DNA of 64,000 nucleotides from a virus. Taxonomy: Duplodnaviria > Caudoviricetes. The DNA is taken from IMG/VR virus record IMGVR_UViG_2866513116_000002, positions 17,938-81,937 of that record; one strand, 5' to 3'. Of this stretch, positions 1 to 18,570 are shown one piece after another. How positions within the stretch are numbered: the stretch's first letter is position 1; every line of letters starts with the position of its first letter. The translations under genes and the position numbers were made by a program. The notes under the pieces were generated by a model that was given only the letters and a program-made list of their open reading frames with translations, had not been told where the DNA came from and did no database searches.

Positions 1-69
1 GGTCAAGTTATTCCTCTATGGCCGTGCCTATTTGGGCGATGACGGCTGTGTTGCTTCGAAGGAGTTGGG

Positions 70-537
70 ATGAAAGACGATCCAGCAGCACTTATCCGGG
101 AGTGCACATCACAGATCAGGGCCGTGGTCGATGACCTCCTGACCGATCTCGCGGAGACGGAGAACGCGCGCCAGAGTGCCCAGGCGAAGGTGTTCGCTCC
201 GCAGCTACCGGAGCCTGACCCCACCAAACCGGCGAATTGGCGGTTCGCGGCCGACGTGATCGCGGCGGCGGATGGGTTTTCGCGATTCCGGGCGGACGAC
301 ACGTTGGTGGTGGTTCACCTACGTCGCGAAGCCGACCGTCTCGAAGCCGCCCAGCAGCAGGCCGACGCGGATGAGGAGCTGATCGAGAAGGCGGCGCGGG
401 TGCTATACGAGCGCACAGATTGGTCAGGATGTGCAGGGTCGGCCTGGGATGCACTCGACAGCGCGTATCAGAAGCCGTGGATCGACATGGCCCGTGCCCT
501 CCATGCCGCCAACCTCCTACGGGACGGTGAGAAGTGA
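70..537 (+). CDS. Phage hypothetical protein
   Basis: AAGGAG RBS before ATG; stop overlaps next start. Confidence 0.75.
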   Translation: MKDDPAALIRECTSQIRAVVDDLLTDLAETENARQSAQAKVFAPQLPEPDPTKPANWRFAADVIAAADGFSRFRADDTLVVVHLRREADRLEAAQQQADADEELIEKAARVLYERTDWSGCAGSAWDALDSAYQKPWIDMARALHAANLLRDGEK

Positions 538-1049
538 TCCTCCAGTCAGCTATCGAGCAGCACCGCCGTGAGCAGAACCCCGAAGGATATTGGGACGACG
601 ACCTGGGCAGCATCGACGACTATGCGCCGTTTGCCATGGCCCGCATTGTCGGCGGCATAGTAGCAAGCGAGCTTGGCGAGCTCGTCTCGTGGAGCAGCTT
701 CGACAACTGCCGTGAGCATGGGCTCACGGTATCGACTCCGGGCGGGTGGACATTCTGCTGGTACGAGCACCGCAACTCGGACGTGGTTCACATTGAGGGT
801 TGCCCTACCAGCGAAGTGCGCGAGTGGGGGCCGTATGGCGGTGATGACAAGTGGGACACCCTGGCCGAATTCTGGCCCGAGACCTATGAAGCCGTGGCGA
901 AGTGTCTCGTCGAGATGATTCGCCACACCATCGAGTCTTCAACTCGGCGTGCTGATTTGAAGGCGATCGGCCTGCGTCACGGGAATGTCGAACTGGAGCG
1001 TCGACGACACTGGGCGTCATTTGCGCGGGACGGCGGTGACCACGCATGA
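534..1049 (+). CDS. Phage hypothetical protein
   Basis: GTGA-coupled to neighbours in operon. Confidence 0.75.
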   Translation: MILQSAIEQHRREQNPEGYWDDDLGSIDDYAPFAMARIVGGIVASELGELVSWSSFDNCREHGLTVSTPGGWTFCWYEHRNSDVVHIEGCPTSEVREWGPYGGDDKWDTLAEFWPETYEAVAKCLVEMIRHTIESSTRRADLKAIGLRHGNVELERRRHWASFARDGGDHA

Positions 1050-1624
1050 GTTCGATGTTCGCAGACGCGTTCGCCGCAATGGGCGACGGGAAGCATCAGC
1101 CCTCTCGGAGGAATGGTTGGCTTGGCGGTGAGAGCCAGGATAAGGGCAGTAGGCAGCGCGAGACTCGCTGGCTCACTCCGAGCCCGATTGTCGATGCCCT
1201 GGGTGCCTTCGACCTGGATCCATGCGGGGCGCCTGGGCACACTTTGGCCCGTCGCACCTTCCAGATCGACGACGGGCAAGATGGCCTGGAGTTGCCGTGG
1301 GTGGGTCGGGTATTCCTGAATCCGCCATACGGCAAGCTCACCCTGCCATTCATGCGAAAGATGGCCGATCACGGGAACGGGACGGCACTCATCTTTGCGC
1401 GCACCGAAACGGCAATGTTTTTCGAGACTGTTTGGGACAGGGCGACCGCGATCCTCTTCCTCAAGGGCAGGGTGACGTTTCTTGACGCCCAGGGCGCGCC
1501 AGCGAAAGCCAACTCGGGTGCCCCTTCATGCCTGGTCGCATATGGGGCTGCTGATGCCACGGCACTGTATGAGTGCGGGCTAGATGGGATGTTCATTCGC
1601 CTGCGGGACGGCGGTGAGAAGTGA
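1046..1624 (+). CDS. Phage DNA N6-adenine methyltransferase (Dam-like)
   Basis: WLTP, FDLDPC, VFLNPPYG, ARTET and FLKGR motifs typical of phage N6A MTases. Confidence 0.9.
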   Translation: MSSMFADAFAAMGDGKHQPSRRNGWLGGESQDKGSRQRETRWLTPSPIVDALGAFDLDPCGAPGHTLARRTFQIDDGQDGLELPWVGRVFLNPPYGKLTLPFMRKMADHGNGTALIFARTETAMFFETVWDRATAILFLKGRVTFLDAQGAPAKANSGAPSCLVAYGAADATALYECGLDGMFIRLRDGGEK

Positions 1625-1917
1625 TGGCTCTCAATCCGAAGATCACCTGGCTTCTTGGGAAGCCCATTAACCCGTGTGGATGCCATGTGTGCGAGAACGA
1701 GTGGCTTCGCATCATGGATGAACTCGATCCTGATGGATGGATGAGTCGCCTGTCGCGGGGAATGATTTTGTGCCCCGAGTGTGGTTGCAAGCGCTGTCCA
1801 CGTGCGACCTATCACGAGCATTCGTGTACGCGCAGCAATGATTCGGGCCAGCAGGGATCGATATACGGCGGATTTGACGCTGGCGAGGGCGAGCCCGTGG
1901 ACGGCGGTGAGAAGTGA
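1621..1917 (+). CDS. Cys-rich (Zn-binding) phage hypothetical protein
   Basis: CGCHVC and CPECGCKRCPRATYH motifs; coupled junctions. Confidence 0.75.
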   Translation: MMALNPKITWLLGKPINPCGCHVCENEWLRIMDELDPDGWMSRLSRGMILCPECGCKRCPRATYHEHSCTRSNDSGQQGSIYGGFDAGEGEPVDGGEK

Positions 1918-2111
1918 TGGGGAACCTTAGCATTCGCAGTGGCTCACCACTGGACATTGAGGTCGACAGTTTCGACGAGGTGGTCATCGACGAGATGTAC
2001 TGGCTCACCTTAGATGAGGCCGAGGCGCTGGCTGAAGGGATTCTGTGTGCGGTAACGCTTATCCGCGAGCGTCGGCACAGCAAGCCCGTGGACGGCGGTG
2101 AATCCCGATGA
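1914..2111 (+). CDS. Phage hypothetical protein
   Basis: Coupled start and stop within junction repeats. Confidence 0.7.
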   Translation: MMGNLSIRSGSPLDIEVDSFDEVVIDEMYWLTLDEAEALAEGILCAVTLIRERRHSKPVDGGESR

Positions 2112-2296
2112 GCATGATGCACATTGCCTACGAGATTGACCGGCTGGCCGCACAGGCCAAGCGTGGCACCGAGCACGAAGACCATGACGGCTCGACATTC
2201 CCTCACGACCATTTCGGCCTGTATTGCGGGTGCGGGGCAGCGCTGGTGGATGCGTCCATGTTGCCGAGCGAGGAAGAGGACGGTGAATCCCGATGA
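2108..2296 (+). CDS. Phage hypothetical protein
   Basis: ATGA overlaps at both ends. Confidence 0.65.
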   Translation: MSMMHIAYEIDRLAAQAKRGTEHEDHDGSTFPHDHFGLYCGCGAALVDASMLPSEEEDGESR

Positions 2297-2562
2297 CCTG
2301 GCATCCCATCACCTGCGCCGAGCGTGAAGCACTCATCGACCAGGTGGGCCGTTCCTACAACGGGCCAGCAGCGCCGTACGTCCCAATCAGTGGCCGGAGT
2401 GATCTCGGCGGCGAATACGGCGATCCCTGCATCCTCACCATCTGGGGACATAGGGAGACGAAAGCGCCTCTGCTCAAGGACATTCGATACCCGGCACCCG
2501 ATTTCGATGGGCATGATTCGCGCCCGTGTGAACACTACCGATGGGAGGAGGAATCCCGTTGA
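2293..2562 (+). CDS. Phage hypothetical protein
   Basis: ATGA overlap; part of array. Confidence 0.7.
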   Translation: MTWHPITCAEREALIDQVGRSYNGPAAPYVPISGRSDLGGEYGDPCILTIWGHRETKAPLLKDIRYPAPDFDGHDSRPCEHYRWEEESR

Positions 2563-2795
2563 GCGACAGTGAAGCCCTAGCGGTCGAACAGTTCCCGGTC
2601 GAATACCGGGAGACCATGATCATCGCCTACCCGGTCATCGCGCAAATGAGCCGCAATGAGTTCTACTTCGCGAGCAGCCGTGCTCGTGACGAGGCGTTCG
2701 CTCGTGTGCTCGCCGCGAAGAACCTACGCCGCACACACGAGATGTTCCTGGAAGACCTGATGAAAGACGTGGAGAGGCGGACAAGGGATGAGTGA
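2559..2795 (+). CDS. Phage hypothetical protein
   Basis: TTG start overlapping upstream TGA after GAGGAGG RBS. Confidence 0.65.
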   Translation: MSDSEALAVEQFPVEYRETMIIAYPVIAQMSRNEFYFASSRARDEAFARVLAAKNLRRTHEMFLEDLMKDVERRTRDE

Positions 2796-3120
2796 CAACG
2801 TGATTGATACCGAACATCTCGAACGTCAGCGAGAGTTCTCGCTCCGCACATTCGGGCCGGGTCAGCGGCTAGCGGGGGTTCTCGACCACATTCGTAAGGA
2901 ACTCAAGGAGATTGAGGACAGCCCGGACGACATCACCGAATGGGCCGACCTGATCATTCTGGCGTTCGACGGCGCTATGCGATCTGGCCACGAACCCCAA
3001 GACATCATCGACGCGATCAAAACCAAGCAGACGAAGAACGAGCAGCGGGAGTGGCCAGACTGGCGGACTCAAGACCCGAACAAGGCCATCGAGCACGTGC
3101 GAGAGGCGGACAGGGGATGA
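2788..3120 (+). CDS. DUF550 / dATP-dGTP pyrophosphohydrolase (MazG-like) protein
   Basis: TFGPG...HIRKELKEIE...EWAD...KNEQREWPDWR...EHVR signature. Confidence 0.85.
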   Translation: MSDNVIDTEHLERQREFSLRTFGPGQRLAGVLDHIRKELKEIEDSPDDITEWADLIILAFDGAMRSGHEPQDIIDAIKTKQTKNEQREWPDWRTQDPNKAIEHVREADRG

Positions 3121-3362
3121 GCGACCCAGCCGTGGAGGCGGCATGGAGGGCATTCGGTGCGCTGTGGCCAGACCAAGGCCACTTCGAGTTTGACTTTGAT
3201 TCGAAAGACTATGCGCTGCTCACCGCCCGCGAGATGGCCGCACCGATCCGGGAGCTGCACAAGCCACGTGGCAGCGGCAGGTTTCAAGAATGCATTGAAT
3301 GCCACACGCCGTGGCCCTGTGCCACAGCGCGTCTCGTCTACACCGAGGAGGAACTGTCGTGA
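3117..3362 (+). CDS. Phage hypothetical protein with Zn-binding motif
   Basis: ELH...CIEC...WPCATA motif common in actinophage small proteins. Confidence 0.75.
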   Translation: MSDPAVEAAWRAFGALWPDQGHFEFDFDSKDYALLTAREMAAPIRELHKPRGSGRFQECIECHTPWPCATARLVYTEEELS

Positions 3363-3622
3363 GTGACGCAGAAGATCGGGCACAGGAATTGCTGTCCTAC
3401 TACGACTCGTGCCGCGGACGCGGCACGACCATCGCACTCACGGCGGACACCACTGACACCATCCGCGACCTCATAGCCGACCTCACCAAGGCCCGCAACG
3501 TGATCGAGCAGGTGCGGGAGGTAGTCGCCGAGATGTTGGAACAGCTCGTTTCTGGGCCGGAGCGTCGCGATGTCGAGCGAATCGCGAGCATCCTCGCCGA
3601 CGCTGAGGGGAGTGGACAGTGA
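3359..3622 (+). CDS. Phage hypothetical protein
   Basis: GTG start overlapping upstream stop. Confidence 0.7.
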   Translation: MSDAEDRAQELLSYYDSCRGRGTTIALTADTTDTIRDLIADLTKARNVIEQVREVVAEMLEQLVSGPERRDVERIASILADAEGSGQ

Positions 3623-4158
3623 GCGAACTACGCGACCTTGACGACATCCTCGACGATCGACGTCACCTCGCCTACGTCAGCGACGGCACCAGTGGCAGTG
3701 AGAAGGTCGGGCGACTGCTCAATGACGTTGCGCCACTAGTGGATGAGGTTAGGCGTCTCCATAACGTGATCGAGCGGGTGCGGGAATACCTGGAGAACGA
3801 CTGTGGACCATTCATCGCCGCAGATGGGTTCCAATCGTTTCGAGGGGCCGACCGTTCTCGCCTACTGGCCATCCTCGCCGACGCTGAGGGGAGTGGACAG
3901 CGCGCCAACGGGTTTGCGGTGGTGGAGCTGCCGAAGCCGACGGACACATATAACCACCTGACCGAAACATCAATGATGGGCTGGGAGATCCCATCGTGGG
4001 AACACTTCGTCGAAACCATCGGCAACGAAGTGCAACTGTCGTACAACGGAGAGCCCGAGGAACCGTTCAGCTCCGAGGTTGCCCGAGCGTTCGCCGCTGC
4101 CCTCTTGGCCGCTGCCGACGCTGCTGATCGTGCCGGGGACGACGGGGAGGGGCGATGA
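3619..4158 (+). CDS. Phage hypothetical protein, apparent fusion of two modules
   Basis: Internal copy of the 31-nt C-terminal junction of the upstream gene. Confidence 0.7.
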   Translation: MSELRDLDDILDDRRHLAYVSDGTSGSEKVGRLLNDVAPLVDEVRRLHNVIERVREYLENDCGPFIAADGFQSFRGADRSRLLAILADAEGSGQRANGFAVVELPKPTDTYNHLTETSMMGWEIPSWEHFVETIGNEVQLSYNGEPEEPFSSEVARAFAAALLAAADAADRAGDDGEGR

Positions 4159-5642
4159 GAACCGGCTCCCTCTTCTCCGGCTATGCCGGTCTCGACATGG
4201 CCGTCAACGCGCACTTCGGCAGCGAGACAGCCTGGTTCGTCGAGAAGGACGCCGCGCCCGCCCGCATCCTCGCCCACCACTGGCCCGACGTACCCAACCA
4301 CGGCGACATCACCGCGATCGACTGGGCGGCGGTCGAGCCCGTCGACATCCTCACGGGCGGCTTCCCCTGCCAGGACGTGAGCGCCGCCGGCAGACGGGCC
4401 GGTATTCGCGAGGGCACCCGGTCTGGTCTATGGTCCTACTTCGCCACAGCCATCAATCAGCTCAAGCCCCGAATGGTGGTGATCGAGAATGTCCGAGGAC
4501 TCCTATCAACCGCAGCCCATCGCCCAGTGGAATCCGTTGCGGATGCTATGGGAGACGGAGCAGGGAGACCTGTTCTCCGAGCACTTGGAGCCGTACTCGG
4601 CGACCTTTGCGACATCGGGTATGACGCGCAATGGACGACTGTTGCCGCTGCCGACGTCGGCGCCTGCCACCGACGAGAACGGGTCTTCATTGTCGCCACT
4701 CCTCGCGACGCCCCGCGCGTCTCGGGGCGCGAGTTCGAAGGCACTTCTGCCGACGCCGAGCGTGGCGGATGGGATGGGCGGGCATCTGACGAGATCGGGG
4801 AGCCGGTCGGACGAGTTGCTATTACCGGGAGTAGGGAAGCTCCTGCCGACGCCGGTGACCGAACCCGAGACAGGGAACGGGAACGCACGGAACCTCGGCA
4901 AGGAGGTGAGGTTGCTACCGACGCCGAGCGCATCGAACCCGAACGACGGCGAGGATCTGGCCTCGTGGGAGGCGCGCCGGGATCGTCTGAAGGCGCAGGG
5001 CTGCAACGGGAATGGGATGGGGACGCCGCTCGGCGTCGCGGTGCGGAAGCTGTAGCACTGCCCCCGACTCCGCGGGCTATGGATGGCCACGGGTCGATGG
5101 TTGCCCCGGCCGCGCGTCAGCACGTCGCCGACGGCGCCGGGTCGCTCCCCGAGGTGCTGGGCGTGCATCTACTCCCGACACCCAAGCAGACCGACCACAA
5201 GCACAACGACACCGCCGGCGAACGGGATCGGCGGAGCCCGTCCCTGGGTGCAGTGAACGCACTCCTTCCCACCCCGAATGCCAGCGACAGCACGGGCGGT
5301 GGTCAGCACCCCGACAAGCGTGAAGGGCACTCGCGTCAACTGATCGACTACGCGTTGACGGTGGCGACCGACTGGGGCGACTACGAGCCCGCGATCCGCC
5401 GCGCCGAGAAGGCTTCCGGACGTCCCGCGCCAGCGCCAACCGAGTTGAGCCGCAACGGCAACCCTCGACTGTCGTCCCGGTTCGCCGAGTGGATGATGAT
5501 GCTGCCTGAGGGGCATGTCACCGGAGTCGGGTTGTCGCGTAACGAGGAGTTGAAAGCCATTGGTAACGGAGTTGTTCCTGCGCAAGCCTTTGCGGCGCTG
5601 GGGATTCTGACGCCGATCGCCGAGAGCCTGGGGGTGGCCTGA
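4155..5642 (+). CDS. DNA (cytosine-5) methyltransferase
   Basis: FSGYAG (motif I), GGFPCQ (IV), ENV (VI), RRERVF (VIII), EWMM and IGNGVV (IX/X). Confidence 0.92.
   Translation: MRTGSLFSGYAGLDMAVNAHFGSETAWFVEKDAAPARILAHHWPDVPNHGDITAIDWAAVEPVDILTGGFPCQDVSAAGRRAGIREGTRSGLWSYFATAINQLKPRMVVIENVRGLLSTAAHRPVESVADAMGDGAGRPVLRALGAVLGDLCDIGYDAQWTTVAAADVGACHRRERVFIVATPRDAPRVSGREFEGTSADAERGGWDGRASDEIGEPVGRVAITGSREAPADAGDRTRDRERERTEPRQGGEVATDAERIEPERRRGSGLVGGAPGSSEGAGLQREWDGDAARRRGAEAVALPPTPRAMDGHGSMVAPAARQHVADGAGSLPEVLGVHLLPTPKQTDHKHNDTAGERDRRSPSLGAVNALLPTPNASDSTGGGQHPDKREGHSRQLIDYALTVATDWGDYEPAIRRAEKASGRPAPAPTELSRNGNPRLSSRFAEWMMMLPEGHVTGVGLSRNEELKAIGNGVVPAQAFAALGILTPIAESLGVA
4489..5055 (+). CDS. Nested +1-frame ORF inside the C5 MTase, with LLPTP repeats
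   Basis: 188-codon frame carrying four LLxTP repeat units of the same kind as the MTase C-terminal part. Confidence 0.5.
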   Translation: MSEDSYQPQPIAQWNPLRMLWETEQGDLFSEHLEPYSATFATSGMTRNGRLLPLPTSAPATDENGSSLSPLLATPRASRGASSKALLPTPSVADGMGGHLTRSGSRSDELLLPGVGKLLPTPVTEPETGNGNARNLGKEVRLLPTPSASNPNDGEDLASWEARRDRLKAQGCNGNGMGTPLGVAVRKL

Positions 5643-6313
5643 TGGGCCCCTACTACTCCGATGATCTCGTGACGCTGTATCACGGGGATTGTCTCGCGAT
5701 CACCGAGTGGCTGAAAGCTGATGTCCTGGTGACCGATCCGCCGTACGGCACACAGTTCTCGGGAGCCAATCCGAAGGGCGGCTACGGGCGGCGACAGAAT
5801 GCCGGGTTGGGGCCCGAGGGATTCACTATCGCCAACGACGGCACAACAGAGACCCGTGATGCTGCCCTCACAGCATGGGGTGATAGACCGGCAATGGTCT
5901 TCGGAAGCCCTCGGCTACCTGATCCACCGGGAGACTGGATTGACAGGCTCGTATGGGACAAGAAGCGACCCGGTATGAACGGTGGCCCTTGGCGCTATCG
6001 CCATGAATCCATCTACGTCACAGCGGGATTCGAACGACGAAACAACGAGAGTGTGTCGATACTCGCCGCTTGGCCCGACCAGAAGGACCATATTCACGCG
6101 AAACCGCTGGGCCTTATGAGCGCTCTCGTTGACTGCGTCCCAAGGGGCGCGGTGATCGCCGACCCATTCGCCGGTTCGGGGTCGACGCTCGTCGCAGCAG
6201 TCAATCAGGGCCGCAGGGCAATCGGTGTCGAGTTGGAAGAGAAGTACTGCGAGATCATCGCGCGGCGGCTGAGCAACCAGACGATGGCCTTTGACTTCGA
6301 GGCAGGTGCGTGA
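5642..6313 (+). CDS. DNA N6A/N4C methyltransferase (beta class)
   Basis: LYHGDC, TDPPYG, HAKP, DPFAGSGST motifs. Confidence 0.9.
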   Translation: MGPYYSDDLVTLYHGDCLAITEWLKADVLVTDPPYGTQFSGANPKGGYGRRQNAGLGPEGFTIANDGTTETRDAALTAWGDRPAMVFGSPRLPDPPGDWIDRLVWDKKRPGMNGGPWRYRHESIYVTAGFERRNNESVSILAAWPDQKDHIHAKPLGLMSALVDCVPRGAVIADPFAGSGSTLVAAVNQGRRAIGVELEEKYCEIIARRLSNQTMAFDFEAGA

Positions 6314-6462
6314 TGGGTCCGTACACATGCCGCTGGTGCGGCCTCGTCTTCGTCGGCCGAGGCACCACCCCGGCTGAGACCGCCGTGCAGCGCTGGTCCG
6401 ATCACACGTGGGAGCACTACACGGAATGGCGAGAAGGCTTAGACGCGAAGGCAGGTGCGTGA
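6313..6462 (+). CDS. Small phage protein, 49 aa (absent from the ORF track)
   Basis: MGPYTCRWCGLVF...EGLDAKAGA; TGATG-coupled at both ends and flanked by 17-nt repeats. Confidence 0.65.
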   Translation: MGPYTCRWCGLVFVGRGTTPAETAVQRWSDHTWEHYTEWREGLDAKAGA

Positions 6463-7475
6463 TGGCCGACCACACCGACATCGAGTGGACGGACCGGACG
6501 TGGAATCCGGTAACGGGTTGCGCCAAGGTATCTCCCGGCTGTGATCACTGCTACGCCGAGGGCATCGCTGAGCGGTTCCGCGGCGGGCCGGCGTTCCCGA
6601 ACGGCTTCGATGTCCAGCTTCGCCCGCATAAGCTGACCGAGCCGTTGCGGTGGCGGAAACCGTCAAAAGTGTTCGCGAACAGCATGTCTGACCTGTTTCA
6701 CGATTCGGTTCCCGACGAGTACATCGCGCAGGTGTTCGCCGTCATGGTCATCGCCGAGCATCACACGTTCCAAGTCCTGACGAAGCGGCATGGTCGGATG
6801 CGATCACTACTTAGCCGCAATGACTTCTGGCGCAGTGTCTACTTGGCGGCTATCGACCTGGGCGCCGACGATCCTGCTGACGTCTCGACAATCGCACCGC
6901 CGAGCAACGTGTGGCTCGGCGTCTCCACCGAGAACCAGCAGTGGGCCGACATCCGGATTCCCGCGCTGCTCGACACCCCGGCGGCGGTGCGGTTCGTCAG
7001 CGCTGAGCCGTTGCTTGGGCCGATCGAGCTGGAGTTCGTGCACTACTTCGACACCGACTGCAACGGCTGCTCGGGGATCATCTCTCCCGCACACGAACCA
7101 GCCTGTGGCAATGAACCTGGCCGCCACTGGGGTATCGACTGGGTGATCGTCGGCGGCGAGTCTGGCCCGAAAGCCCGCCCGATGCACCCGGATTGGGCGC
7201 GATCACTGCGAGACCAGTGCGCGGAGGCCGGGGTGCCGTTTCACTTCAAGCAGTGGGGTGAGTGGGTTCCCGAGTCGGCGAACCTCCACGCCGCCAAAGC
7301 CGCTGCCGCATTCCTCGACCTCGACGGCACAGTGCGGCCACTCGTCAACGGATACCCAACCACCCCGCCAATGAGTCGCGGAGAAGCCATCACGATCCGC
7401 CGCGTCGGTAAGAAACGCGCTGGCCGGGTGCTCGACGGGCGGACGTGGGACCAGTTCCCGGGCGGTGAGGCGTGA
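6462..7475 (+). CDS. Phage Gp37/Gp68 family protein (DUF5131)
   Basis: IEWTDRTWNPVTGC.KVSPGCDHCYAE, NSMSDLFH, LTKR, SAEPLLG, GGESG, FKQWG motifs. Confidence 0.92.
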   Translation: MADHTDIEWTDRTWNPVTGCAKVSPGCDHCYAEGIAERFRGGPAFPNGFDVQLRPHKLTEPLRWRKPSKVFANSMSDLFHDSVPDEYIAQVFAVMVIAEHHTFQVLTKRHGRMRSLLSRNDFWRSVYLAAIDLGADDPADVSTIAPPSNVWLGVSTENQQWADIRIPALLDTPAAVRFVSAEPLLGPIELEFVHYFDTDCNGCSGIISPAHEPACGNEPGRHWGIDWVIVGGESGPKARPMHPDWARSLRDQCAEAGVPFHFKQWGEWVPESANLHAAKAAAAFLDLDGTVRPLVNGYPTTPPMSRGEAITIRRVGKKRAGRVLDGRTWDQFPGGEA

Positions 7476-7828
7476 TGGGCTACCTACTCGGTCTTCTCAC
7501 ACTCCCCGCGATCGCGCTCGTTTGTGTGGCTCTGTGGGGCGCGTATCGGTGGCTGTGGCGTTGGTGGACAAGCCCAGTCGACCTTGACGAAGTGACCCGG
7601 GATCGCAGAGCGCACGTCACGGCGATCGTCGCATCCGAGCTGTGTGCCGCACGCCGCATGTGGCACATCAAGATCCCGGGCGGCGTCATGCTCGCGATCC
7701 GGTCCGGCGGTGTTGGTCACGACAAGGGCTACGGGTGGGTGCTACTCGACCGTCGGATGCAGGCATTCGAGAACGGAATCCGCGGCGCATTCGACGACCT
7801 CGACGAGCAGCCGGGCGGTGAGGCGTGA
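7472..7828 (+). CDS. Membrane-anchored phage protein
   Basis: N-terminal hydrophobic helix; flanked by 21-nt identical repeats. Confidence 0.7.
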   Translation: MMGYLLGLLTLPAIALVCVALWGAYRWLWRWWTSPVDLDEVTRDRRAHVTAIVASELCAARRMWHIKIPGGVMLAIRSGGVGHDKGYGWVLLDRRMQAFENGIRGAFDDLDEQPGGEA

Positions 7829-8439
7829 TGGCCACCGACCTGAAATTCATGATGCGGGTACACAATCTGATCCAGGACATCCACCTCGACGACGACCTCG
7901 ACGCCAACGCAAAACTGTTTTGCCTACTGGTCCTCGCGGACATCGCCCGCCGTCGCACACTCAGCCCGTCTGCACGACTGGCCGAGACGGTCGGGTGGAT
8001 AAACCGCATCGATGAGCGTGCCGGGCAGCCCTACTTCAGTCGCATGGTGATCCGTCGGGACGTCCCACGCTATGAGCGCGAACAGGACACCGGAGTGTGT
8101 GTTGGCGAGATGATCCGGCGTGACGGCCCATGCGGCAAGAAGGTGTACAAGACCATCGTCGACGTCGACCCCGCGACTGGGCGAGAAGTGCTCATTGGGT
8201 ACTGCACCCGCCACTGGAGCCTTGACCACGAGCAGCGAGCCAGGGAACAGCGCAGGCAATGGTACGAGAACGGCCGCCCTCGACCACCAGTCAACGCGGG
8301 AGGGGTTCTCCGGCGCCACCTCTCGACCGACTGGGATTACCTCTACGACTGGGCGGACCCGCACCGTGATCACGCCGAGGACGGCAAAGAACCCATACCG
8401 CCACGGCCAACACTGAGCCTCATTCAGGGCGGTGTCTGA
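7828..8439 (+). CDS. Phage hypothetical protein
   Basis: Coupled ORF with Cys/His motif (C..C..C.H). Confidence 0.75.
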   Translation: MATDLKFMMRVHNLIQDIHLDDDLDANAKLFCLLVLADIARRRTLSPSARLAETVGWINRIDERAGQPYFSRMVIRRDVPRYEREQDTGVCVGEMIRRDGPCGKKVYKTIVDVDPATGREVLIGYCTRHWSLDHEQRAREQRRQWYENGRPRPPVNAGGVLRRHLSTDWDYLYDWADPHRDHAEDGKEPIPPRPTLSLIQGGV

Positions 8440-8657
8440 TGCCCCGCAACCCTGATGGTCTACCCGCTGCACGGTGGCAGACGGTCGAATACGACAACGG
8501 ACACCGTAATCAACAGCGCTACCGGTCCGTGATACGCGGCAACCGGTACGAAACACGAGTCGACACCCGCCGCGACCCCACCTGTCTATGCCTCGCATGT
8601 CGGCGACGGTGCCTGGGGGAGACGACGAAGAAGGAGGAGGTGAACGAGAAGCAGTGA
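8439..8657 (+). CDS. Phage hypothetical protein
   Basis: TGATG coupling; C.C..C motif. Confidence 0.55.
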   Translation: MPRNPDGLPAARWQTVEYDNGHRNQQRYRSVIRGNRYETRVDTRRDPTCLCLACRRRCLGETTKKEEVNEKQ

Positions 8658-9541
8658 GAACGCATGGAAGGCTCCTCGTCTCGATTTGGCGCGACAAGGA
8701 CTTCGTCTCCTGCAGCGTTGAGGCCCAGCGCTGCTACATGATGCTGCTCGCGCAGAAGGACGTGAACAACGCGGGCGTCCAGCCGCTCATGATCCGCAAG
8801 TGGGCGCGAGGTTGTGAAGCGACCTCCGAGGACGACATTGTGCGAGCGCTCAATGAGCTACAGGGCGCTCGATTTGTCTGCTACGACGTCGACTCCGAGG
8901 AGTTGTTGATCCGTTCGTTCATCCGTAACGACGGAATCGTGAAGCAGCCGAACGTGCTCAAGAATGCGCTCCGGGTGGCCGAGCAAACCGAGTCGCCGAG
9001 GCTCCGTCAGGCGCTCTCCGACGAACTGCAAACTCTTGGCCGCAAGGACGCCTCAGAGGTGGCTTCGCGAATGGCTGTGGAAGGCAGCGGAAACCCTTTC
9101 GAGAACCCTTCGGAAACCCTTCCTGAACCCTTGAACCCTTCGGGAACCCCTCGCGAACCACGCGGAGATGGGGATGGGGAGGGGGTAACTAACAACGTTG
9201 TCTCACCTTCAGATTCCAAGAGAGTTTCCGCGCAGAAGCGCGGCACCAGACTCCCAGAGGGGTGGATGCCCGATCAGTCGGTGATCGCACAGATGCGCCA
9301 AGAGCGGCCAGACGTCGACCTCCAGGCAGAACATCGCAAGTTCGCGGATCACTGGAAGGCGGCCACTGGGAAGAACGCGACCAAGCGGGACTGGGACGCA
9401 ACCTGGCGGAACTGGATCAGGAATGCCCGCGGCAGTTCCCGTGTCGCGCCCATCTCGACCACCGACGCGCGTATCGCAGCCGCCCAGGCACTCAAGGATC
9501 GACCCGCCAACGTTCACCCCTTGCGAGGACTCGAAGCATGA
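8654..9541 (+). CDS. Phage replication initiator protein (lambda O-like organisation)
   Basis: SIW.D.DF N-terminus, central iteron linker, C-terminal RGTRLP...DWDATWRNWIR. Confidence 0.8.
   Translation: MRTHGRLLVSIWRDKDFVSCSVEAQRCYMMLLAQKDVNNAGVQPLMIRKWARGCEATSEDDIVRALNELQGARFVCYDVDSEELLIRSFIRNDGIVKQPNVLKNALRVAEQTESPRLRQALSDELQTLGRKDASEVASRMAVEGSGNPFENPSETLPEPLNPSGTPREPRGDGDGEGVTNNVVSPSDSKRVSAQKRGTRLPEGWMPDQSVIAQMRQERPDVDLQAEHRKFADHWKAATGKNATKRDWDATWRNWIRNARGSSRVAPISTTDARIAAAQALKDRPANVHPLRGLEA
9089..9151. repeat. Iteron-like repeats (AACCCTT x5 plus AACCCCT), putative phage replication origin
   Basis: Copies at 9092, 9104, 9115, 9126, 9134 and 9145, mostly ~11 bp apart, inside the initiator gene. 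Confidence 0.75.
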
Positions 9542-9876
9542 ACCGCAACCAGATCATCGACCTTTTGACCATCGCCTCGGCGTATGACCGCCGCACGATC
9601 GGGGAGGGCGACATCGCCGCCTGGTCGGAGGCGTCACGCCGCGCCGGGTGGCGTCTCGAGCTTGCGACGGACGCGATCCACGAGCACTATGCGCAGACCT
9701 CGAAGTGGCTGATGCCCGGTCACATTACCGAGCGGATCAAGCTCGCGGCCCGACAGCCTGCGCCGGTCGATGAGGCGATGCGACAGCTTGGCGCAGCCCC
9801 GCCGGCATCGGCCGAGCGCCGTGCCGAGGTGATGGCCGAGATCCGAAAGTTCGCCGATCGGAAGGCGATGCCATGA
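9538..9876 (+). CDS. Putative helicase loader/inhibitor-like protein
   Basis: LLTIASAYDRRT...AW...AIHEHY...MPGHI; position directly after initiator. Confidence 0.6.
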   Translation: MNRNQIIDLLTIASAYDRRTIGEGDIAAWSEASRRAGWRLELATDAIHEHYAQTSKWLMPGHITERIKLAARQPAPVDEAMRQLGAAPPASAERRAEVMAEIRKFADRKAMP

Positions 9877-10181
9877 CCAACAACATCCCTGCCGATCTCG
9901 CGCGCCTGGATGCGTCTCTCGGACCCGTGATGTGCGAGTGCGTATGCGCCGAGTGCCACGGCTCGCGGCCGGCCACCACGGTGGTGGTGATCCACGACTG
10001 CGGCAACACCCCGACGCGCAAGGCGATGCTCGCGTGTGAGTCCTGCGAACGGAACCTCGTCCGCGTGATGGCGCAGCAGATCCACGCTGCGGCACTCCGT
10101 GGGGAGATGTTCGCGTGCCGTGGTTGCGGGGTGCGCTTCCACTCAATCGCCGACTACGTGCTGGAGGTGAGCCCGCTGTGA
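9873..10181 (+). CDS. Zn-finger phage protein
   Basis: Several CxxC pairs. Confidence 0.7.
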   Translation: MTNNIPADLARLDASLGPVMCECVCAECHGSRPATTVVVIHDCGNTPTRKAMLACESCERNLVRVMAQQIHAAALRGEMFACRGCGVRFHSIADYVLEVSPL

Positions 10182-10399
10182 TCCCGATCCAGGCGGCTCT
10201 ACGCAACGCTGTGGGCTTCGTGGCCACTCTCACGGGTAATGACCACCCCCACGACGCCAGCGAAGCTCTCAGCGGCTCTCAGGCCCCGATTCGACCCACT
10301 CCACTCCGAAACCCGTCAAACCCCAGCGATCACCTGCCTGCCGACACCGTGTGGTGGGAGAACCAGGCTGATCGCATCGCAGAAAGGCTCGCGAGATGA
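10178..10399 (+). CDS. Phage hypothetical protein
   Basis: GGAGG RBS, GTG start, coupled. Confidence 0.55.
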   Translation: MIPIQAALRNAVGFVATLTGNDHPHDASEALSGSQAPIRPTPLRNPSNPSDHLPADTVWWENQADRIAERLAR

Positions 10400-10968
10400 A
10401 AGCACCACTACAAGGCGACATCGTCGTCGTCGACGTCGAGACCACCGGACTCAACCCGGAGGCCGACCAGATTTGGGAGTTCGCGGCGATCCGTCGCCAT
10501 GCCGATGGGTCGACGACTGAAACCCACATCTACCACCAGGCCCATTCGGACCTCGTGGCACAGATGCCCGAGCGATTCAAAGCCGACTACGACCAGCGAT
10601 ACGGGGTGGACGGCCACGCCTACTCGACCCCTGCCGCTGCCGCGATCATCCACGCGGCCTGCGATGGCCCCGGTGTTCATCTGGTCGGAGCCAATCCGCG
10701 CTTCGATCACGAGTTCCTGAGCCGGCTACTTGCTCGCAGTGGATTCGAGGCGCCCTGGGATTATCACGTCATCGACGTCGAATCCATGGCCCTAGGTTGG
10801 CTTTTGGCGAAAGGGCACCGGATCACGCTGCCGTTCAAGTCCGACAACCTGGCGGAGCGTTGTGGAGTGCGTGGAACGTTCGCGCGTCACACCGCATTAG
10901 GTGACTGCCGATGGGCGCTTGCGTGGCTGGAGCGGATTGAAGAACAGTCGGTGGTGATGGGGGCATGA
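10396..10968 (+). CDS. DnaQ-like 3'-5' exonuclease (DEDDh)
   Basis: VDVETTGL, GAN.RFD, HTALGD motifs. Confidence 0.9.
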   Translation: MKAPLQGDIVVVDVETTGLNPEADQIWEFAAIRRHADGSTTETHIYHQAHSDLVAQMPERFKADYDQRYGVDGHAYSTPAAAAIIHAACDGPGVHLVGANPRFDHEFLSRLLARSGFEAPWDYHVIDVESMALGWLLAKGHRITLPFKSDNLAERCGVRGTFARHTALGDCRWALAWLERIEEQSVVMGA

Positions 10969-11291
10969 ACCACCCACCCTGCTCTGTAGACGACTGCGGT
11001 CGAGACGGCATCAAACGAGGCATGTGCGAAGTGCACTACATGCGCTGGTACCGGAAGGCTATGCGCGATGGGACATTCGTGAGAGTTCAACGCCGGTCAG
11101 ACTCTATACCGCCCGAAGAGGGTGTCGAAGAGTTCGAGATGCTCATGCAACACACCACCGACATGCTGTTGGCCTGCCGACGGCTGGGGGTGCATCCACG
11201 CACCGTGATCCGATGGCATAAGCGTGCCGGAAAGCCCGTGCCACAGGGACTCTGGCAGGCGTACAACGTTGCATCGACTCGGGTTGCGTGA
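10965..11291 (+). CDS. Zn-finger plus HTH phage protein
   Basis: CSVDDC...RGMCEVHY followed by ACRRLGVHPRTV HTH. Confidence 0.7.
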   Translation: MNHPPCSVDDCGRDGIKRGMCEVHYMRWYRKAMRDGTFVRVQRRSDSIPPEEGVEEFEMLMQHTTDMLLACRRLGVHPRTVIRWHKRAGKPVPQGLWQAYNVASTRVA

Positions 11292-11659
11292 TGACTGCGA
11301 TGACTGACGAGTGTGATGCACTATGCGACGACATTGAGCGTGACCGCGACGCCCTGCGCCAGGCGTGGGATGACCACCACGACGCTGAGCAAGCTGAGGG
11401 TTTGTGGTGTGACCGCAATGATCTTCTGATTCGGATCGAGAAGTTGCGGGCCGAGGTGAAGCGGCTGACACCCCGCGAAATCACGACGGTGGTGGAGTTG
11501 GAGGCGTTGCCGAACGGGGGTGTGATCCGCTCCGACGAGGGCTGCATCTGGGAGAAAGACATCAGCGGATGGTATGAGCCGGGTTCTCGACATGAACACA
11601 TCGCTTCCGACCTCGCACTCCCCGCCGCCGTGCTCTACCTACCTGAAGGTGGTGAGTGA
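11288..11659 (+). CDS. Phage hypothetical protein
   Basis: ITTVVELEALPNGGVIR module typical of actinophages. Confidence 0.7.
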   Translation: MMTAMTDECDALCDDIERDRDALRQAWDDHHDAEQAEGLWCDRNDLLIRIEKLRAEVKRLTPREITTVVELEALPNGGVIRSDEGCIWEKDISGWYEPGSRHEHIASDLALPAAVLYLPEGGE

Positions 11660-11847
11660 CGTTGAAGGCCAAGCACAATGGCCCCTGTGCCGACGACTGC
11701 GGCCGTTGGATTCACGAGGGTGACGAGATCGAACACCGAGACAACGGTTGGGCTCACACCACATGCCCAGACCTGGCAGAGATGACCGGCGAGGCATCCG
11801 ATGCATGCCCCGACTGTCACCTTATCCACGCAGGGGAGTGCTGGTGA
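11656..11847 (+). CDS. Small Cys/His-rich phage protein
   Basis: AKHNGPC..CG..I..GD motif; coupled. Confidence 0.7.
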   Translation: MTLKAKHNGPCADDCGRWIHEGDEIEHRDNGWAHTTCPDLAEMTGEASDACPDCHLIHAGECW

Positions 11848-12248
11848 CCACCTACCGGCTCGACCTTCCGTGGACGAAACCGCCACTGTCGATGAACGAC
11901 CGCCGCAACCACTTCGCCCATGCTCGCATCGTCAAGCAGATCCGAAACACGGTGCACCTGTTAGCGATTGCCGCTCATCTGCCCCGCGATTGCGAGCACG
12001 TCACGGTACAATTGCACTACGCACCCAGAGATGAAAGACGCAGGGACACAGATAATTTGGTCGCCACGTTGAAGCCGATGTGCGATGCCCTGGCCAAGGG
12101 AACGACGGCGCATCCCGGATACGGTCTCGTCGAGGACGACACCCCGATGTGGATGTCGAAACCCGAACCGATCATCCATCCGAAGACAGGCACCGGAGTG
12201 GGGGAGATGTGGCTGGAGATCGAGGTGGAGATCGGGGTCGACGGATGA
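11844..12248 (+). CDS. RusA-like Holliday junction resolvase
   Basis: PPLSMN, RRRDTDN...K...DAL...DD catalytic pattern. Confidence 0.8.
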   Translation: MTTYRLDLPWTKPPLSMNDRRNHFAHARIVKQIRNTVHLLAIAAHLPRDCEHVTVQLHYAPRDERRRDTDNLVATLKPMCDALAKGTTAHPGYGLVEDDTPMWMSKPEPIIHPKTGTGVGEMWLEIEVEIGVDG

Positions 12249-12523
12249 CCGGATGGAAGCACGGCACCCCATCGGGCGCTCAGATGCACTACCGGATGGG
12301 CGAGAAGCCCTGCGAGGCTTGTCGAGCGGCGAAGAACGAGTACAACCGGAAAAAGAATCACCTGCGCCGCCTTGTCCACCGATGCATCTCAATCCCCGAA
12401 GGTGTGCTGGTGGAGTTGTACCTCAACGCCACTCCCGAAGCGCAGGAGCACCTGGAAGCCGTGATCGACCTGCCCACCTTGGATCGCATGGTCGCGGCAC
12501 ATGACGAGAAGGAGAGCGCGTGA
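12245..12523 (+). CDS. Phage hypothetical protein
   Basis: HGT.SG...H...GEKPC.AC motif. Confidence 0.7.
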   Translation: MTGWKHGTPSGAQMHYRMGEKPCEACRAAKNEYNRKKNHLRRLVHRCISIPEGVLVELYLNATPEAQEHLEAVIDLPTLDRMVAAHDEKESA

Positions 12524-13131
12524 ACCCCGAAGACGCGGTGCTCGACGAAATCGACCGGCTGGTGGACGAATCCCTCGCCAAACCGTGGGATCGGATCAGC
12601 GGCTACGACAACGACATCAATCAGCCTCAGTGTCGGTGCGGGCTCGACTGGCATGGGCTGCCGAGAGGGTACTGTCCCGGGTCGGATACGGAAGGTCCTA
12701 TCGACGATCCTTGGTCGCGAAGGCGTGCGAAGAGGTTGTCGAGCAACCTCGTCAATTCAGGGACAGTCTTTGTTGCTCAAGCCAGCCCCGACCCTGAGGG
12801 CCAAAGCTGGAGTCCTCTCGGGACGGTCACCGCTGGTCCTCGATTCACCTATGCGCCGGAGTTCTCGTTCTCCACACCTCAGTGGCCGCGTATCGGGCCG
12901 TCCTATGCCGAACTGTTCCATCGCGCCAGCGAGATCTTCCCCGAGATCTTCGCCGAACTGTCCGTGACGTTCCAGAACCTCACCGCCGCAGTGGAGACCA
13001 GTAGGGAGCGTCTTGGCGCCTGGCAAGAGCCATCCGAGGAGCCGCAGACACCCCAGCAGCGAGCACTCCCGCGCCCATCCACCACCCCGCCCATGTGGGC
13101 ACCGCGCGCCGACGGACGGAGACGACACTGA
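12520..13131 (+). CDS. Phage hypothetical protein
   Basis: LDEIDRLVD N-terminus and ALPRPSTTPPMWA C-terminus seen in actinophage proteins. Confidence 0.7.
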   Translation: MNPEDAVLDEIDRLVDESLAKPWDRISGYDNDINQPQCRCGLDWHGLPRGYCPGSDTEGPIDDPWSRRRAKRLSSNLVNSGTVFVAQASPDPEGQSWSPLGTVTAGPRFTYAPEFSFSTPQWPRIGPSYAELFHRASEIFPEIFAELSVTFQNLTAAVETSRERLGAWQEPSEEPQTPQQRALPRPSTTPPMWAPRADGRRRH

Positions 13132-14102
13132 TGCAGTGCACGAAGTGCGGTGGACGAGCAACGGTGTACCTGTGCCGTGAGTGCATCCGAGAATTGGACT
13201 CCAACCTCGAGCAAATCCCGTGGATCGCTGACCGACTCACCGAGGCGTACGCGAAGCAGAACGCGCTCTCTACGCCACCGGGACCGCGGCACATCGTGGA
13301 AGCCGAGGACGATGAACAGTCCCCGATGCCGTATGACCGGGTGGCCGGCGACACCTACAACGAGTTGCGCACCGTGCTGATGCGCTGGTGCCGTGACCTC
13401 GCCGACCTGATCGGTGTGGAGTGGCTGCCCGTGGATGCCGTGCCACTGGACTTCATCGGCCCACTACGGCCCATGATCCCGGCCAACAACACCGAGCGGA
13501 TCCCGGAGATCCCCGGCCAGTTCCGCATCTCCCGCCACTACATCCCCGACATCGCGGATCTGTCCCGGTGGCTCAACGTCCACCGCTTGGATCTCGCCAA
13601 CTCCGAGGATGCGGCGTTCGCGGCCCACGAGATCGACCGTGTGTGCCGCAAGGCGTTCCGGGTACTGAATCCGCCGAAGCGGGTCTACTGCGGCCCGTGT
13701 CCCACGGTGGTGGGCAAGGATGCCCGCAACCGCCCGTTGGAGTGTGCGCAAGGCCTGTGGGCCGACTGGGATGACGACAACGACCACGCAGCCACCCATG
13801 TGGAGTGCTGGAAGTGCCGCAAGCGACACAACGTCGACGAGCTGAAGAAGCACATCTACGCTCACGCCGATCACTTCTCGATGACGGTGGAGGAGCTGTT
13901 GAGCGTGCTCGACAACCTTGGGGAGCCGGTGCCGCAGTCCACGTTGTACCGGTGGATCAAGGAGGGCCGTGTGAGACCGCGCGGATATCAGCGTGATGGA
14001 CGGATCACACCGACGCGCCTGAGACGTGGTGACCCGGCGGTGTTCTCGCTCGCCGAGGTGCGTGGACTGATGGCACAGAACGAGAAACAGACGGTGGGAT
14101 GA
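13131..14102 (+). CDS. Zn-finger/HTH protein, putative late-gene transcriptional regulator
   Basis: CxxC pairs, GPCP, C-terminal HTH (TLYRWIKEGRV); last gene of the early operon. Confidence 0.7.
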   Translation: MQCTKCGGRATVYLCRECIRELDSNLEQIPWIADRLTEAYAKQNALSTPPGPRHIVEAEDDEQSPMPYDRVAGDTYNELRTVLMRWCRDLADLIGVEWLPVDAVPLDFIGPLRPMIPANNTERIPEIPGQFRISRHYIPDIADLSRWLNVHRLDLANSEDAAFAAHEIDRVCRKAFRVLNPPKRVYCGPCPTVVGKDARNRPLECAQGLWADWDDDNDHAATHVECWKCRKRHNVDELKKHIYAHADHFSMTVEELLSVLDNLGEPVPQSTLYRWIKEGRVRPRGYQRDGRITPTRLRRGDPAVFSLAEVRGLMAQNEKQTVG

Positions 14103-14148
14103 CTCGAAAGTCGAATACTCGCGTGGAGGTGTGAAAACCGAGCGGCGC

Positions 14149-14439
14149 TCAGGCCGAGTGCCGCTCGATGTACTCGCCAACAGCGCGGCGGATGACTTCG
14201 GCCGGCGCGACGCCCTCGGCAGTGGCCACGGCCTCCAGTTGCGCCCGGAGTTCCTGCGGGAGCCGCACTGATGTGGTGGGCGTCTTCCCTCGTGCGGGGG
14301 CGGTCTTCGGTGGCCGACCGGTGCGCAGGATCGCGTGGTTGACTTCGATCTCGCCAACGATCTCGTCGGCGGTGGGCGGGTTGGCCTCGAAGTCTGCGGC
14401 CATCTCCGCATACTCGTCATCGGTGAATCGTCGTTCCAT
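14149..14439 (-). CDS. Ribbon-helix-helix (CopG-like) antitoxin
   Basis: GRPP...TTSVRLPQELRAQLEAVATAEGVAPAEVIRRAV. Confidence 0.8.
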   Translation of the reverse strand: MERRFTDDEYAEMAADFEANPPTADEIVGEIEVNHAILRTGRPPKTAPARGKTPTTSVRLPQELRAQLEAVATAEGVAPAEVIRRAVGEYIERHSA

Positions 14440-14447
14440 CTTCTCTC

Positions 14448-14747
14448 TCACTTCCGTTGTGGCGCATAGGTGATATCGCCGAGGAGTTCAGCGATCCCGA
14501 GGTTGTTCACGAGGCTGCGGCGCAGCATCATCGCGTGGAACACCACAGCCTCGTCTTCGTCGGCCATGTCGGCCAGGACCTCGATGTAGGGCGCATTGGC
14601 GGCTGCTGGTCCGATGTGCAGGAACAGCACCGCGCCCTCACGCTTCGCCGGGAGGGAGATCCGGAGGGCGAAGTAGGCGAGGACCGTGCGGATCTCGTCG
14701 CCGGTGATCCCGTGCTGACGGGCGCTTGGGGTGATGGTGATCCGCAT
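14448..14747 (-). CDS. Putative type II toxin (BrnT/RelE-like)
   Basis: SARQHGI...IEV...VFHAM motif; immediately upstream of RHH gene. Confidence 0.65.
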   Translation of the reverse strand: MRITITPSARQHGITGDEIRTVLAYFALRISLPAKREGAVLFLHIGPAAANAPYIEVLADMADEDEAVVFHAMMLRRSLVNNLGIAELLGDITYAPQRK

Positions 14748-14753
14748 GAGATA

Positions 14754-14783
14754 AGTGTACTGCACTTACCTACGATAGTGCAA
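14754..14783 (-). promoter_or_regulatory. SigA-type promoter of the TA operon (leaderless)
   Basis: TTGCAC-18 nt-TACACT on the minus strand, ATG 7 nt downstream. Confidence 0.6.
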
Positions 14784-14899
14784 CACAATTTCTTGAGTTC
14801 GGGCAAATCATACTTGGACGTTTTCACTAGGCGTGTGTGAGAATGGATCTGCAGCACTACAGCTGTCCCCAAAACACACCTGATCAGTGGTGTGTACCC

Positions 14900-15034
14900 G
14901 ATCTTCCGCCGCGCCGCGTCAACGCCGTCTACTCATGCGGCAATGCCACGCCCATGACCGTCCTTCCGGCAACTCCGCGCGAGGCGTGAATCGGGTTCGG
15001 GCAGGACCCGAGTTGCAGCGCGGCGCGGCGGATC
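14900..15034 (+). ncRNA. Candidate structured RNA (strand assumed)
   Basis: 13-bp perfect closing stem 14906-14918/15019-15031 with internal hairpins; no ORF. Confidence 0.4.
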
Positions 15035-15115
15035 ACCCACCGATGAAACCGAGAAACCGATGACAGTTCTCCTCCATCTTCTTGTCGAATCACTCATCTG
15101 TGCAAGGCATTTGGC

Positions 15116-15331
15116 ATGAGTGCCGAGGCGCGCGCCGAGAAGACTGCAATTCTCACAGGCGCCATATTGGGCGTCGTGGCGATTCTGCTCCCGCTGGCGA
15201 TCGGGGTCGTGGCACTTAGTCGGGGTGGTGGATGGCTCACGTACTGCGCGGTCTACCTCGTGGTCGTTAGCTCCATCGACATCTTCCGATACTGCGTCCG
15301 CGGCGTCTCGTCCGATTCGAGACGACGATGA
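15116..15331 (+). CDS. Small two-TM membrane protein
   Basis: Two hydrophobic helices; coupled to next gene. Confidence 0.6.
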   Translation: MSAEARAEKTAILTGAILGVVAILLPLAIGVVALSRGGGWLTYCAVYLVVVSSIDIFRYCVRGVSSDSRRR

Positions 15332-16048: not shown

Positions 16049-16058
16049 AAGGCAGCCG

Positions 16059-16995: not shown

Positions 16996-17072
16996 CCACC
17001 GACAGCCGAACCACCCGCACGTCCGTAGCCAGCGCGCGGGTGGTTCGGCACCTTTCGTTACGGAGCAAACCG

Positions 17073-17586: not shown

Positions 17587-17617
17587 AGACACCAGCACAA
17601 CGAGGGAACGTGGACAC

Positions 17618-18530: not shown

Positions 18531-18570
18531 TGTCAGAAATTCCCCCAATTACCGGGAGGTGATCGAAAAA

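Follow-up and report, generated by a model that had tools for sequence, protein, structure and literature searches.

Related linker sequences at consecutive early-gene junctions of a prophage, most likely of Gordonia, as probable sites of short-homology cassette exchange

The modular theory of lambdoid phages was reportedly set out by Susskind and Botstein in 1978, and Clark et al. are said to have described boundary (linker) sequences in these phages in 2001, in connection with HK620; such linkers are short gene-junction sequences that lie between unrelated genes, are common to different phages, and are places of module exchange. A comparable arrangement is the subject of this analysis: in a 64,000-nucleotide stretch of viral DNA (hereafter the window; IMG/VR virus record IMGVR_UViG_2866513116_000002, positions 17,938 to 81,937; Duplodnaviria, Caudoviricetes), seven consecutive genes (g1 to g7) end in related junction sequences, named here linkers J1 to J7 and located between positions 520 and 2562 of the window. 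Three features set this locus apart from the lambdoid linkers: it belongs to an actinobacterial, Gordonia-type prophage and not to an enterobacterial one; it forms a dense chain of seven consecutive junctions, with four more repeats; and the core shared by the linkers is the Shine-Dalgarno (SD) complement, with the linkers lying largely in the coding tails and overlapping the stop and start codons.

The long-standing debate on phage mosaicism opposes homologous exchange at boundary sequences to random illegitimate joins sorted by selection; since boundary sequences are seldom met in actinophages, the latter view prevails for this group (PMC3029335, PMC3233612). Two described cases come close to the present one. 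As for Island3, the C-terminal 18 residues of gp68 and ~50 bp repeat those of the upstream gp67 (Pope et al. 2011, PLoS One 6:e16329, PMC3029335), and in the passage devoted to this gene the authors invoke recombination between short sequences of ~50 bp, akin to boundary sequences, as the first mycobacteriophage example. As in the window, an inserted orphan gene has an end that repeats the end of its upstream neighbor, but the account of Island3 concerns one gene and one repeat pair, whereas here there is a chain of 15-31 nucleotide (nt) repeats and several independent joints in relatives. Regarding the Arthrobacter phages of cluster AU, a 32-bp intergenic repeat in a five-gene cluster was read as boundary sequences (bioRxiv 10.1101/2020.01.10.891226); in the part of that preprint dealing with the cluster, the repeats stand between consecutive small genes, as they do here, in a region prone to insertions, deletions and translocations, but they are intergenic and of one type, whereas those of the window overlap coding tails and occur in several types, with hybrids. 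The kind of element is already known; what is added here is an actinobacterial setting, a dense chain, an SD core visible as the switch point, and relatives that can be cultured. A search of the open-access literature found no paper on these Gordonia linkers, and such a search cannot show that none exists.

The motifs of the window are probably short conserved boundary (linker) sequences of a temperate actinophage, acting as sites of short-homology cassette exchange. They are conserved at the junctions of unrelated genes within one genome; they recur between different genes in relatives, as seen in two sources, a genome of another species of the same genus (G003) and contigs from four public sequencing runs (X1 to X4); and breakpoints or insertions and deletions coincide with them in five joints of X1 to X4, in the comparison of phage DobbysSock with phages Clark, Beenie and Mcklovin, and in contigs C40 and C44 of G003. 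The seven strings picked out in a sequence-only reading of the window are all in place, at 520-537, 1026-1049, 1604-1626, 1892-1919, 2083-2111, 2276-2296 and 2545-2562; each comprises the stop codon of one open reading frame (ORF) and the overlapping ATG, GTG or TTG of the next, and the proteins have the tails given there, namely DGEK, DGGDHA, DGGEK, PVDGGEK, PVDGGESR, EEDGESR and EEESR. All-against-all BLASTP agreed with the statement that the seven proteins are unrelated except for these tails.

Row by row, and all on the + strand, g1 (70..537; an ORF of 155 amino acids (aa), tail LRDGEK, phrog_34595) ends in J1 (CGGGACGGTGAGAAGTGA, 520..537), which contains the GTG start of g2 at 534, and g2 (534..1049; 171 aa, phrog_11149), a single-gene module, ends in J2 (GCGGGACGGCGGTGACCACGCATGA, 1025..1049), with 15 nt in common with J3. 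The third gene, g3 (1046..1624; 192 aa, Pfam PF05869), encodes a Dam-like DNA N6-adenine methyltransferase and ends in J3 (GCGGGACGGCGGTGAGAAGTGATGG, 1603..1627), which has a 22-nt identity with J4; J4 itself (1892..1920), at the end of the Cys-rich ORF g4 (1621..1917; 97-98 aa), is a hybrid with a J5-like left half and a J3-like right half. The ORF g5 (1914..2111; 64-65 aa) is closed by J5 (AGCCCGTGGACGGCGGTGAATCCCGATGA, 2083..2111), g6 (2108..2296; 62 aa, phrog_26886) by J6 (GAGGACGGTGAATCCCGATGA, 2276..2296), which has 16 nt in common with J5, and g7 (2293..2562; 89 aa, phrog_6625) by J7 (GAGGAGGAATCCCGTTGA, 2545..2562), which contains the TTG start of g8 at 2559. Further along the + strand, beyond those reported earlier, similar repeats occur: at the gene ends 2795/3120, where the linker GAGAGGCGGACA... 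(2772..2795) has 12 nt in common with its partner at 3101..3120; at 6313/6462, where AGGCAGGTGCGTGATGG (6300..6316) matches 6449..6465 over 17 nt; at 7475/7828, where CCGGGCGGTGAGGCGTGATGG (7458..7478) matches 7811..7831 over 21 nt; and at 3589/3870, where a 31-nt repeat ends g11 (3589..3619) and has its second copy, lacking the stop codon, inside g12 (3870..3900).

To measure this similarity, genes were called genome-wide with a simple codon-score caller, and 34-nt gene-end segments around the stop codons were compared in adjacent same-strand pairs. The longest common exact runs of the six successive J1-J7 pairs are 8, 15, 22, 19, 16 and 8 nt; in the host control, made of 2077 adjacent same-strand pairs outside the prophage, the maximum run is 11 nt and 66 pairs reach at least 8. 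Four of the six pairs thus exceed every host gene-end pair, and the similarity goes beyond what a ribosome-binding site plus stop and start codons impose, the point on which the earlier proposal could have failed. Over the early region of the prophage, 7 of 47 adjacent pairs have a run of at least 12 nt (15, 22, 19, 16, 12, 17 and 21), against 0 of 2077 in the host, while among the late genes none of 32 adjacent pairs exceeds 8 nt. When all 81 prophage junctions are compared (3240 pairs), 12 pairs share at least 12 nt, all of them within a rank distance of 3, and seven are adjacent; this limitation to neighbors fits local recombination and not a dispersed regulatory motif. J1 has 14 nt in common with both J3 and J4, and GAATCCCG followed by TGA is common to J7, J5 and J6. 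The longer motifs are unique in the 4.5-Mb genome, except for one extra GGTGAGAAGTGA at position 110889 of contig C28, and the short core GACGGCGGTGA has 49 copies. Ignoring genes, local direct repeats of at least 14 nt number 10 in 28 kb against ~5 expected, a count that does not discriminate; nine of the ten sit at junctions or in the g11/g12 repeat.

Each junction is built of a few C-terminal tail codons outside the conserved protein, an SD core, a short spacer and the overlapping stop and start. In most junctions, one half matches the preceding junction and the other half the following one, as the first reading had noticed: the left half is common to J2 and J3, the right half to J3 and J4, the left again to J4 and J5, and the right to J5 and J6, so that tails and spacers assort independently across J2-J6. 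A mechanism that would give this pattern is exchange between the junctions of co-infecting or co-resident relatives, which would recombine via the 15-30 nt shared by neighbors and would thereby bring in, remove or substitute one to three genes at a time as a cassette. Crossovers in or next to the shared SD core would produce hybrid junctions, hence the sharing of one half with the neighbor on either side; each product would keep its genes translationally coupled, and for this reason the recombinants would survive. We infer that linker homology guided the exchanges instead of merely marking them, and the order and direction of the events (insertion or deletion) are to be read in the same conditional sense.

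The comparison with relatives is in line with this mechanism. Runs X1 to X4 are represented by Logan contigs from four runs of four studies, which carry subsets of the array at 85-99% likeness; joints of other, related phages would be just what the comparison needs. Fifteen joints are listed, with sides of 24-164 nt; five of them fall in 520-2562, and in each of these neither end is more than 5 nt away from a linker. At the joint 518->1025, from J1 to J2, g2 is absent (X1); 527->1899, from J1 to J4, has 255 other letters in between in X4, where another small gene replaces g2-g4; 1628->2088 connects J3 and J5; 2108->2560, from J5 to J7 (X1 and X4, sides of 60 and 164 nt), leaves out g6 and g7, with g5 present in both runs and joined straight to g8; and 2298->3097, in X3, leads from J6 to the linker at 3101-3120. 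Three joints lie at the further linkers (3120->3337, and 3623->3910 and 3625->3902, these last two in X3 and X2), and a CGG insertion follows position 524, in J1, in relatives. Two loose ends point the same way: in X2, g2 switches right after 1039/GGCGGTGA to the J3-type spacer GAAGTGATGG and another gene, and in X2 and X3 a g1-type tail immediately precedes J3-g4. Gene order is accordingly not fixed in relatives, and breakpoints of gain and loss fall in the motifs, as had been anticipated; the proposal of a cassette array built through short homology stood as to the joints at linkers, and its single-gene step did not always hold, because g6 and g7 are absent together and g2-g4 are replaced as a block. 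At the linkers, the gene content of natural relatives varies by one to three genes.

Genome G003 gives the same picture with other genes. There, CGGGACGGCGGTGAGAAGTGA, the same linker as that of g1, lies behind a g1 homologue of 42% aa identity; after it come an unrelated 105-aa gene and GAGCCCGTGGACGGCGGTGAATCCTGATGA, which is J5 with one mismatch, followed by a gene similar to g12 in its C-half, and by a C5 methyltransferase. Two upstream contigs shift from diverged to identical ~30 nt before the stop codon, and both run into one 3-kb contig (the three are the end of C40, L163; C44, L004; and C49, L022). Their 77-nt overlap begins at the linker, which suggests that two co-resident prophages have an identical block in common, bounded on its left by the linker.

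As for cultured phages, a 16-nt direct repeat, CGGGGCGGTGTACTGA, stands on either side of the g2 orthologue of DobbysSock (gene 51), and the close DobbysSock relatives Clark, Beenie and Mcklovin lack gene 51 and contain a single CGGGGCGGTGTACTGA; in PhorbesPhlower, the junction leads straight to the methyltransferase that in DobbysSock comes next after gene 51. The mechanism is therefore testable, since culturable Gordonia phages such as DobbysSock and Clark bear the same signature. The g2 orthologues of DobbysSock (75% aa identity) and Kuwabara (69%), both Gordonia phages, align with g2 from the second base of the start codon (535) to ~1000, ~50 nt before the stop, after which all three differ; in Kuwabara the shared junction is found on the left side only. 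The g4 orthologues of two viral contigs, 66% and 62% identical in aa sequence, have other tails, and so do the g3 homologues of genome contigs (25 found, at most 56% aa identity) in all eight cases whose gene ends were read; the similarity of g9 to phage genes stops at 3096-3104, 16-24 nt ahead of its stop codon. By these alignments, tails follow the neighborhood and not the gene. In practice, anyone who annotates these small proteins or sorts them into families should count their last 4-15 residues as part of the junction and not of the family. In addition, one Gordonia-phage junction, with a DGGDT tail, resembles J2.

Neighboring junctions that resemble each other are also found away from the window. 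In genome G017, which is of another species, a prophage-like locus (L158, G017:C6, 8100-9030) has two neighbor-repeat pairs of 17 and 24 nt (GCCGAGGCGGTGGACCA; GACGGCGGTGAGCGCGATGAGTGA), and in the viral contig L177 (IMG/VR), which also carries a g4 orthologue, the gene ends 1548/1874 share 19 nt, with EGEQQ tails. Overall, a neighbor pair of at least 12 nt occurs in four of the seven loci compared (this window, G017, DobbysSock and L177), and none was found in G087, in Kuwabara or among the G003 gene ends listed. A separate observation in G017 is that two of the genes downstream of the repeats start alike, with MTDRDVL and MSDRDII.

Searches with single parts of the array had narrower returns. 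Protein searches with g2 and g7 across 92 genomes of the genus found only the genome of the window itself (G000), that with g5 in viral contigs found no homologue, and BLASTN of the block J4-g5-J5 against phages gave nothing better than E~10. Pattern matches to GRCGGTGAGAAGTGA (52 loci) and GGYGGTGAATCCYGATGA (17 loci) in viral contigs were discarded, as they belong to unrelated phages of 31-71% G+C, none with an extended linker; these counts do not exceed chance by a rough estimate in which the size of the collection was assumed and no control run was made. The five metagenome-contig matches to GGACGGCGGTGAGAAGTGA were set aside as chance, for none encodes a protein of the array, and the pattern GACGGCGGTGAN{4,7}TGA, present in 77 of the 92 genomes of the genus and mostly in ordinary coding sequence, was useful only as the lead to G017, with the regions of G051, G068, G059 and G038 left out of the comparison.

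Several points weigh against linker-guided exchange. The module boundaries of phages match gene boundaries generally, through selection for intact genes, so that breakpoints at junctions are no sufficient proof of targeting by homology. The joints were taken from tables at 85% likeness, and those below 95%, or with sides shorter than 30 nt, may reflect other organisms; 7 of the 15 are inside genes (g1, g11 and g12) and resemble diverged segments, not linker events. The share of the sampled words found in any one public run stays at or below 7%, and no exchange was observed directly. J1/J2 and J6/J7 share just 8 exact nt, which is within the host range. Finally, the related prophage of G087 shares several genes with this one and has no similar neighboring junctions, which indicates that linkers are not required for this type of genome.

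The strongest of the rival explanations is that the repeats are scars: genes would have been inserted illegitimately, with scarcely any homology or none, those in frame and coupled alone would have survived, and re-entry just upstream of a resident junction would have duplicated it, so that the repeats would be a record of earlier insertions and no guide to exchange. The repeat-free prophage of G087 and the one-sided junction of the Kuwabara g2 orthologue agree with this idea, which we nevertheless regard as unlikely. The same linkers surround different genes in other genomes (G003; X1-X4), they are reused in different joints (J1 joined to J2 or J4; J5 to J3 or J7), and the hybrid junctions switch at the shared core; this reuse, in varied combinations and genomes, argues against scars alone and is what homology-guided exchange predicts. 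Besides, direct repeats of 15-30 nt, once present, are deletion substrates anyway, whatever their origin.

A second rival starts from the SD character of the junctions. The 3' end of the 16S rRNA is GGATCACCTCCTTTCT, of which GGAGGTGATCC is the complement, so the shared cores (GGCGGTGA, GACGGTGA or GGAGGA, 3-6 nt ahead of the start codon) are SD sequences. Duplexes with this 3' end have a mean predicted energy of -13.3 kcal/mol at the seven linkers, compared with -8.6 at the 74 remaining junctions of the prophage (Mann-Whitney p 4e-4, a test in which the seven are not independent of each other); on these predicted energies, the junctions are expression-ready. The motifs could then be a selected element for translation initiation or coupling with no role in recombination, like the start-associated sequences (SAS/ESAS) of cluster K mycobacteriophages, for which one asymmetric 13-bp consensus, GGGATAGGAGCCC, is described in 11-19 dispersed copies conserved across subclusters (PMC3203893). 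The likeness consists in a location just upstream of start codons, the inclusion of an SD core and the confinement to the early, non-structural half of the genome (PMC3203893); furthermore, the seven junctions occupy the position of a ribosome-binding site, pair strongly with the 16S 3' end and have, in 7 of 7 cases, less structure than shuffled versions (z +0.15 to +1.44). However, SAS follow a single consensus in that account, to which the junction sequences read have no resemblance, whereas the similarity here is local, confined to within three genes, divided among at least five unrelated linker types in one prophage and does not follow the gene. Moreover, the identity reaches into tail codons, 11 nt beyond the upstream edge of the SD core (AGCCCGTGGAC), the orthologues or homologues of g2, g3 and g4 have quite different junctions elsewhere, and relatives differ by whole cassettes at the motifs, all of which makes a purely translational role decidedly improbable.

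Tandem duplication of one small ancestral gene, followed by divergence with conservation of the ends alone, can be judged on the proteins, and its probability is very small. The all-against-all comparison of 21 early proteins, 50-495 aa in length, has a sole real pair, g11 (3359-3622) and the N-half of g12 (3619-4158), with E 9e-7; these are true tandem paralogues with a 31-nt shared end, which speaks for duplication at that place. The match between g4 and g5 is their 7-residue tail alone, no other related pair exists in the set, and the early genes fall into different Pfam/PHROG families or none. As regards g12, it is a tandem duplicate of g11 in which TGA has become CGC after the 31-nt repeat; as the stop codon is missing from the second copy, the duplicate is fused to a downstream domain (RANGFAVVELPKP...), which is a separate gene, or stands on another N-terminus, in G003, G017 and Kuwabara. 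The g11 duplicate is missing from the relatives in runs X2 and X3.

Finally, a true integron, in which a tyrosine recombinase acts site-specifically at attC-like sites, has next to no chance of being the explanation. The array does resemble integron cassettes in that its small genes lack promoters, point the same way and meet at repeated junctions. But integrons have an attC fold, IntI and site-specific recombination, whereas here DNA folding of the seven junction segments gave no hairpins and nothing better than shuffles, a scan of 53 proteins (window -9900 to +20900 and 47000-48000) brought up no integrase, that of the prophage itself included, the linkers are of several unrelated types within coding sequence, and exchange seems homology-based. 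The locus is thus not an integron, for it has neither the structure of attC sites nor, in the proteins scanned, an integrase; the integron-like behavior suggested in the sequence-only reading survives as an analogy, with several linker types instead of one site, and its remark that no integrase was in view agrees with the scan. An Rfam scan of positions 1-20000 of the window matched no family.

Returning to cassette exchange at boundary sequences, candidate enzymes would be a Sak4-type AAA_24 protein of the prophage, a RecT from a partner phage and the host RecA, with breaks from an HNH endonuclease. The search for an annealase left of the window, which had been recommended at the outset, led to the first of these, at window -1881..-832, ~0.9 kb away (PF13479, 37.8 bits; phrog_124 weak); in G017, YqaJ and RecT are encoded just upstream of the linker region, and RecE/RecT are annotated in the same position in DobbysSock, Clark, Beenie and Mcklovin. 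The HNH endonuclease gene (Pfam PF01844, 25.4 bits against a cut-off of 21.4) is directly upstream of g1 and the linker array; it begins 265 nt left of the window (L002:1235-1573), and its 3' end covers 1..73 on the + strand. Its product has 70% aa identity with that of gene 72 of the Gordonia phage Kuwabara, which sits two genes upstream of the Kuwabara g2 orthologue. The HNH endonuclease could supply breaks that stimulate local exchange. From here one may go further and regard the linkers as a dedicated system for fast cassette exchange, with the SD core as the crossover site for the annealing machinery of the phage (Sak4-type here, RecT in relatives), perhaps stimulated by the HNH endonuclease; this is a tentative and rather doubtful extension. 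If it held, early accessory genes would be shuffled at rates visible in one lysate or between co-resident prophages, and the array would amount to an integron without an integrase, kept by selection for translational coupling.

Regarding its context, the window lies within contig C18 of a 4.5-Mb genome (G000) of 66% G+C, and the prophage occupies its first ~47 kb. A repressor gene, a cro-like gene, an antirepressor gene and the early genes start ~9-10 kb left of the window, the terminase genes are at 18.6-20.9 kb, and large ORFs of the + strand, taken as late genes, extend to ~46.5 kb (the family scan stopped at the terminase genes). The top matches of single genes are phages isolated on Gordonia terrae and on mycobacteria, from which the host is most likely a Gordonia, and the prophage most likely a temperate actinophage of this genus.

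Among the other early genes, g9 encodes a dATP/dGTP pyrophosphohydrolase, and a C5 and then an N4/N6 methyltransferase are found downstream of it (Pfam/PHROGs). With the Dam-like enzyme, the early operon holds three classes of DNA methyltransferase and a DUF5131 protein (1046-1624, 4155-5642, 5642-6313 and 6459-7475), which may be an anti-restriction load. Two small minus-strand genes lie inside the early region, at 14149-14765, one of them with a ribbon-helix-helix domain, and may be a toxin-antitoxin or regulator pair. Outside the prophage, positions 60001-62000 of the window have a G+C content of 0.52, compared with ~0.65 elsewhere.

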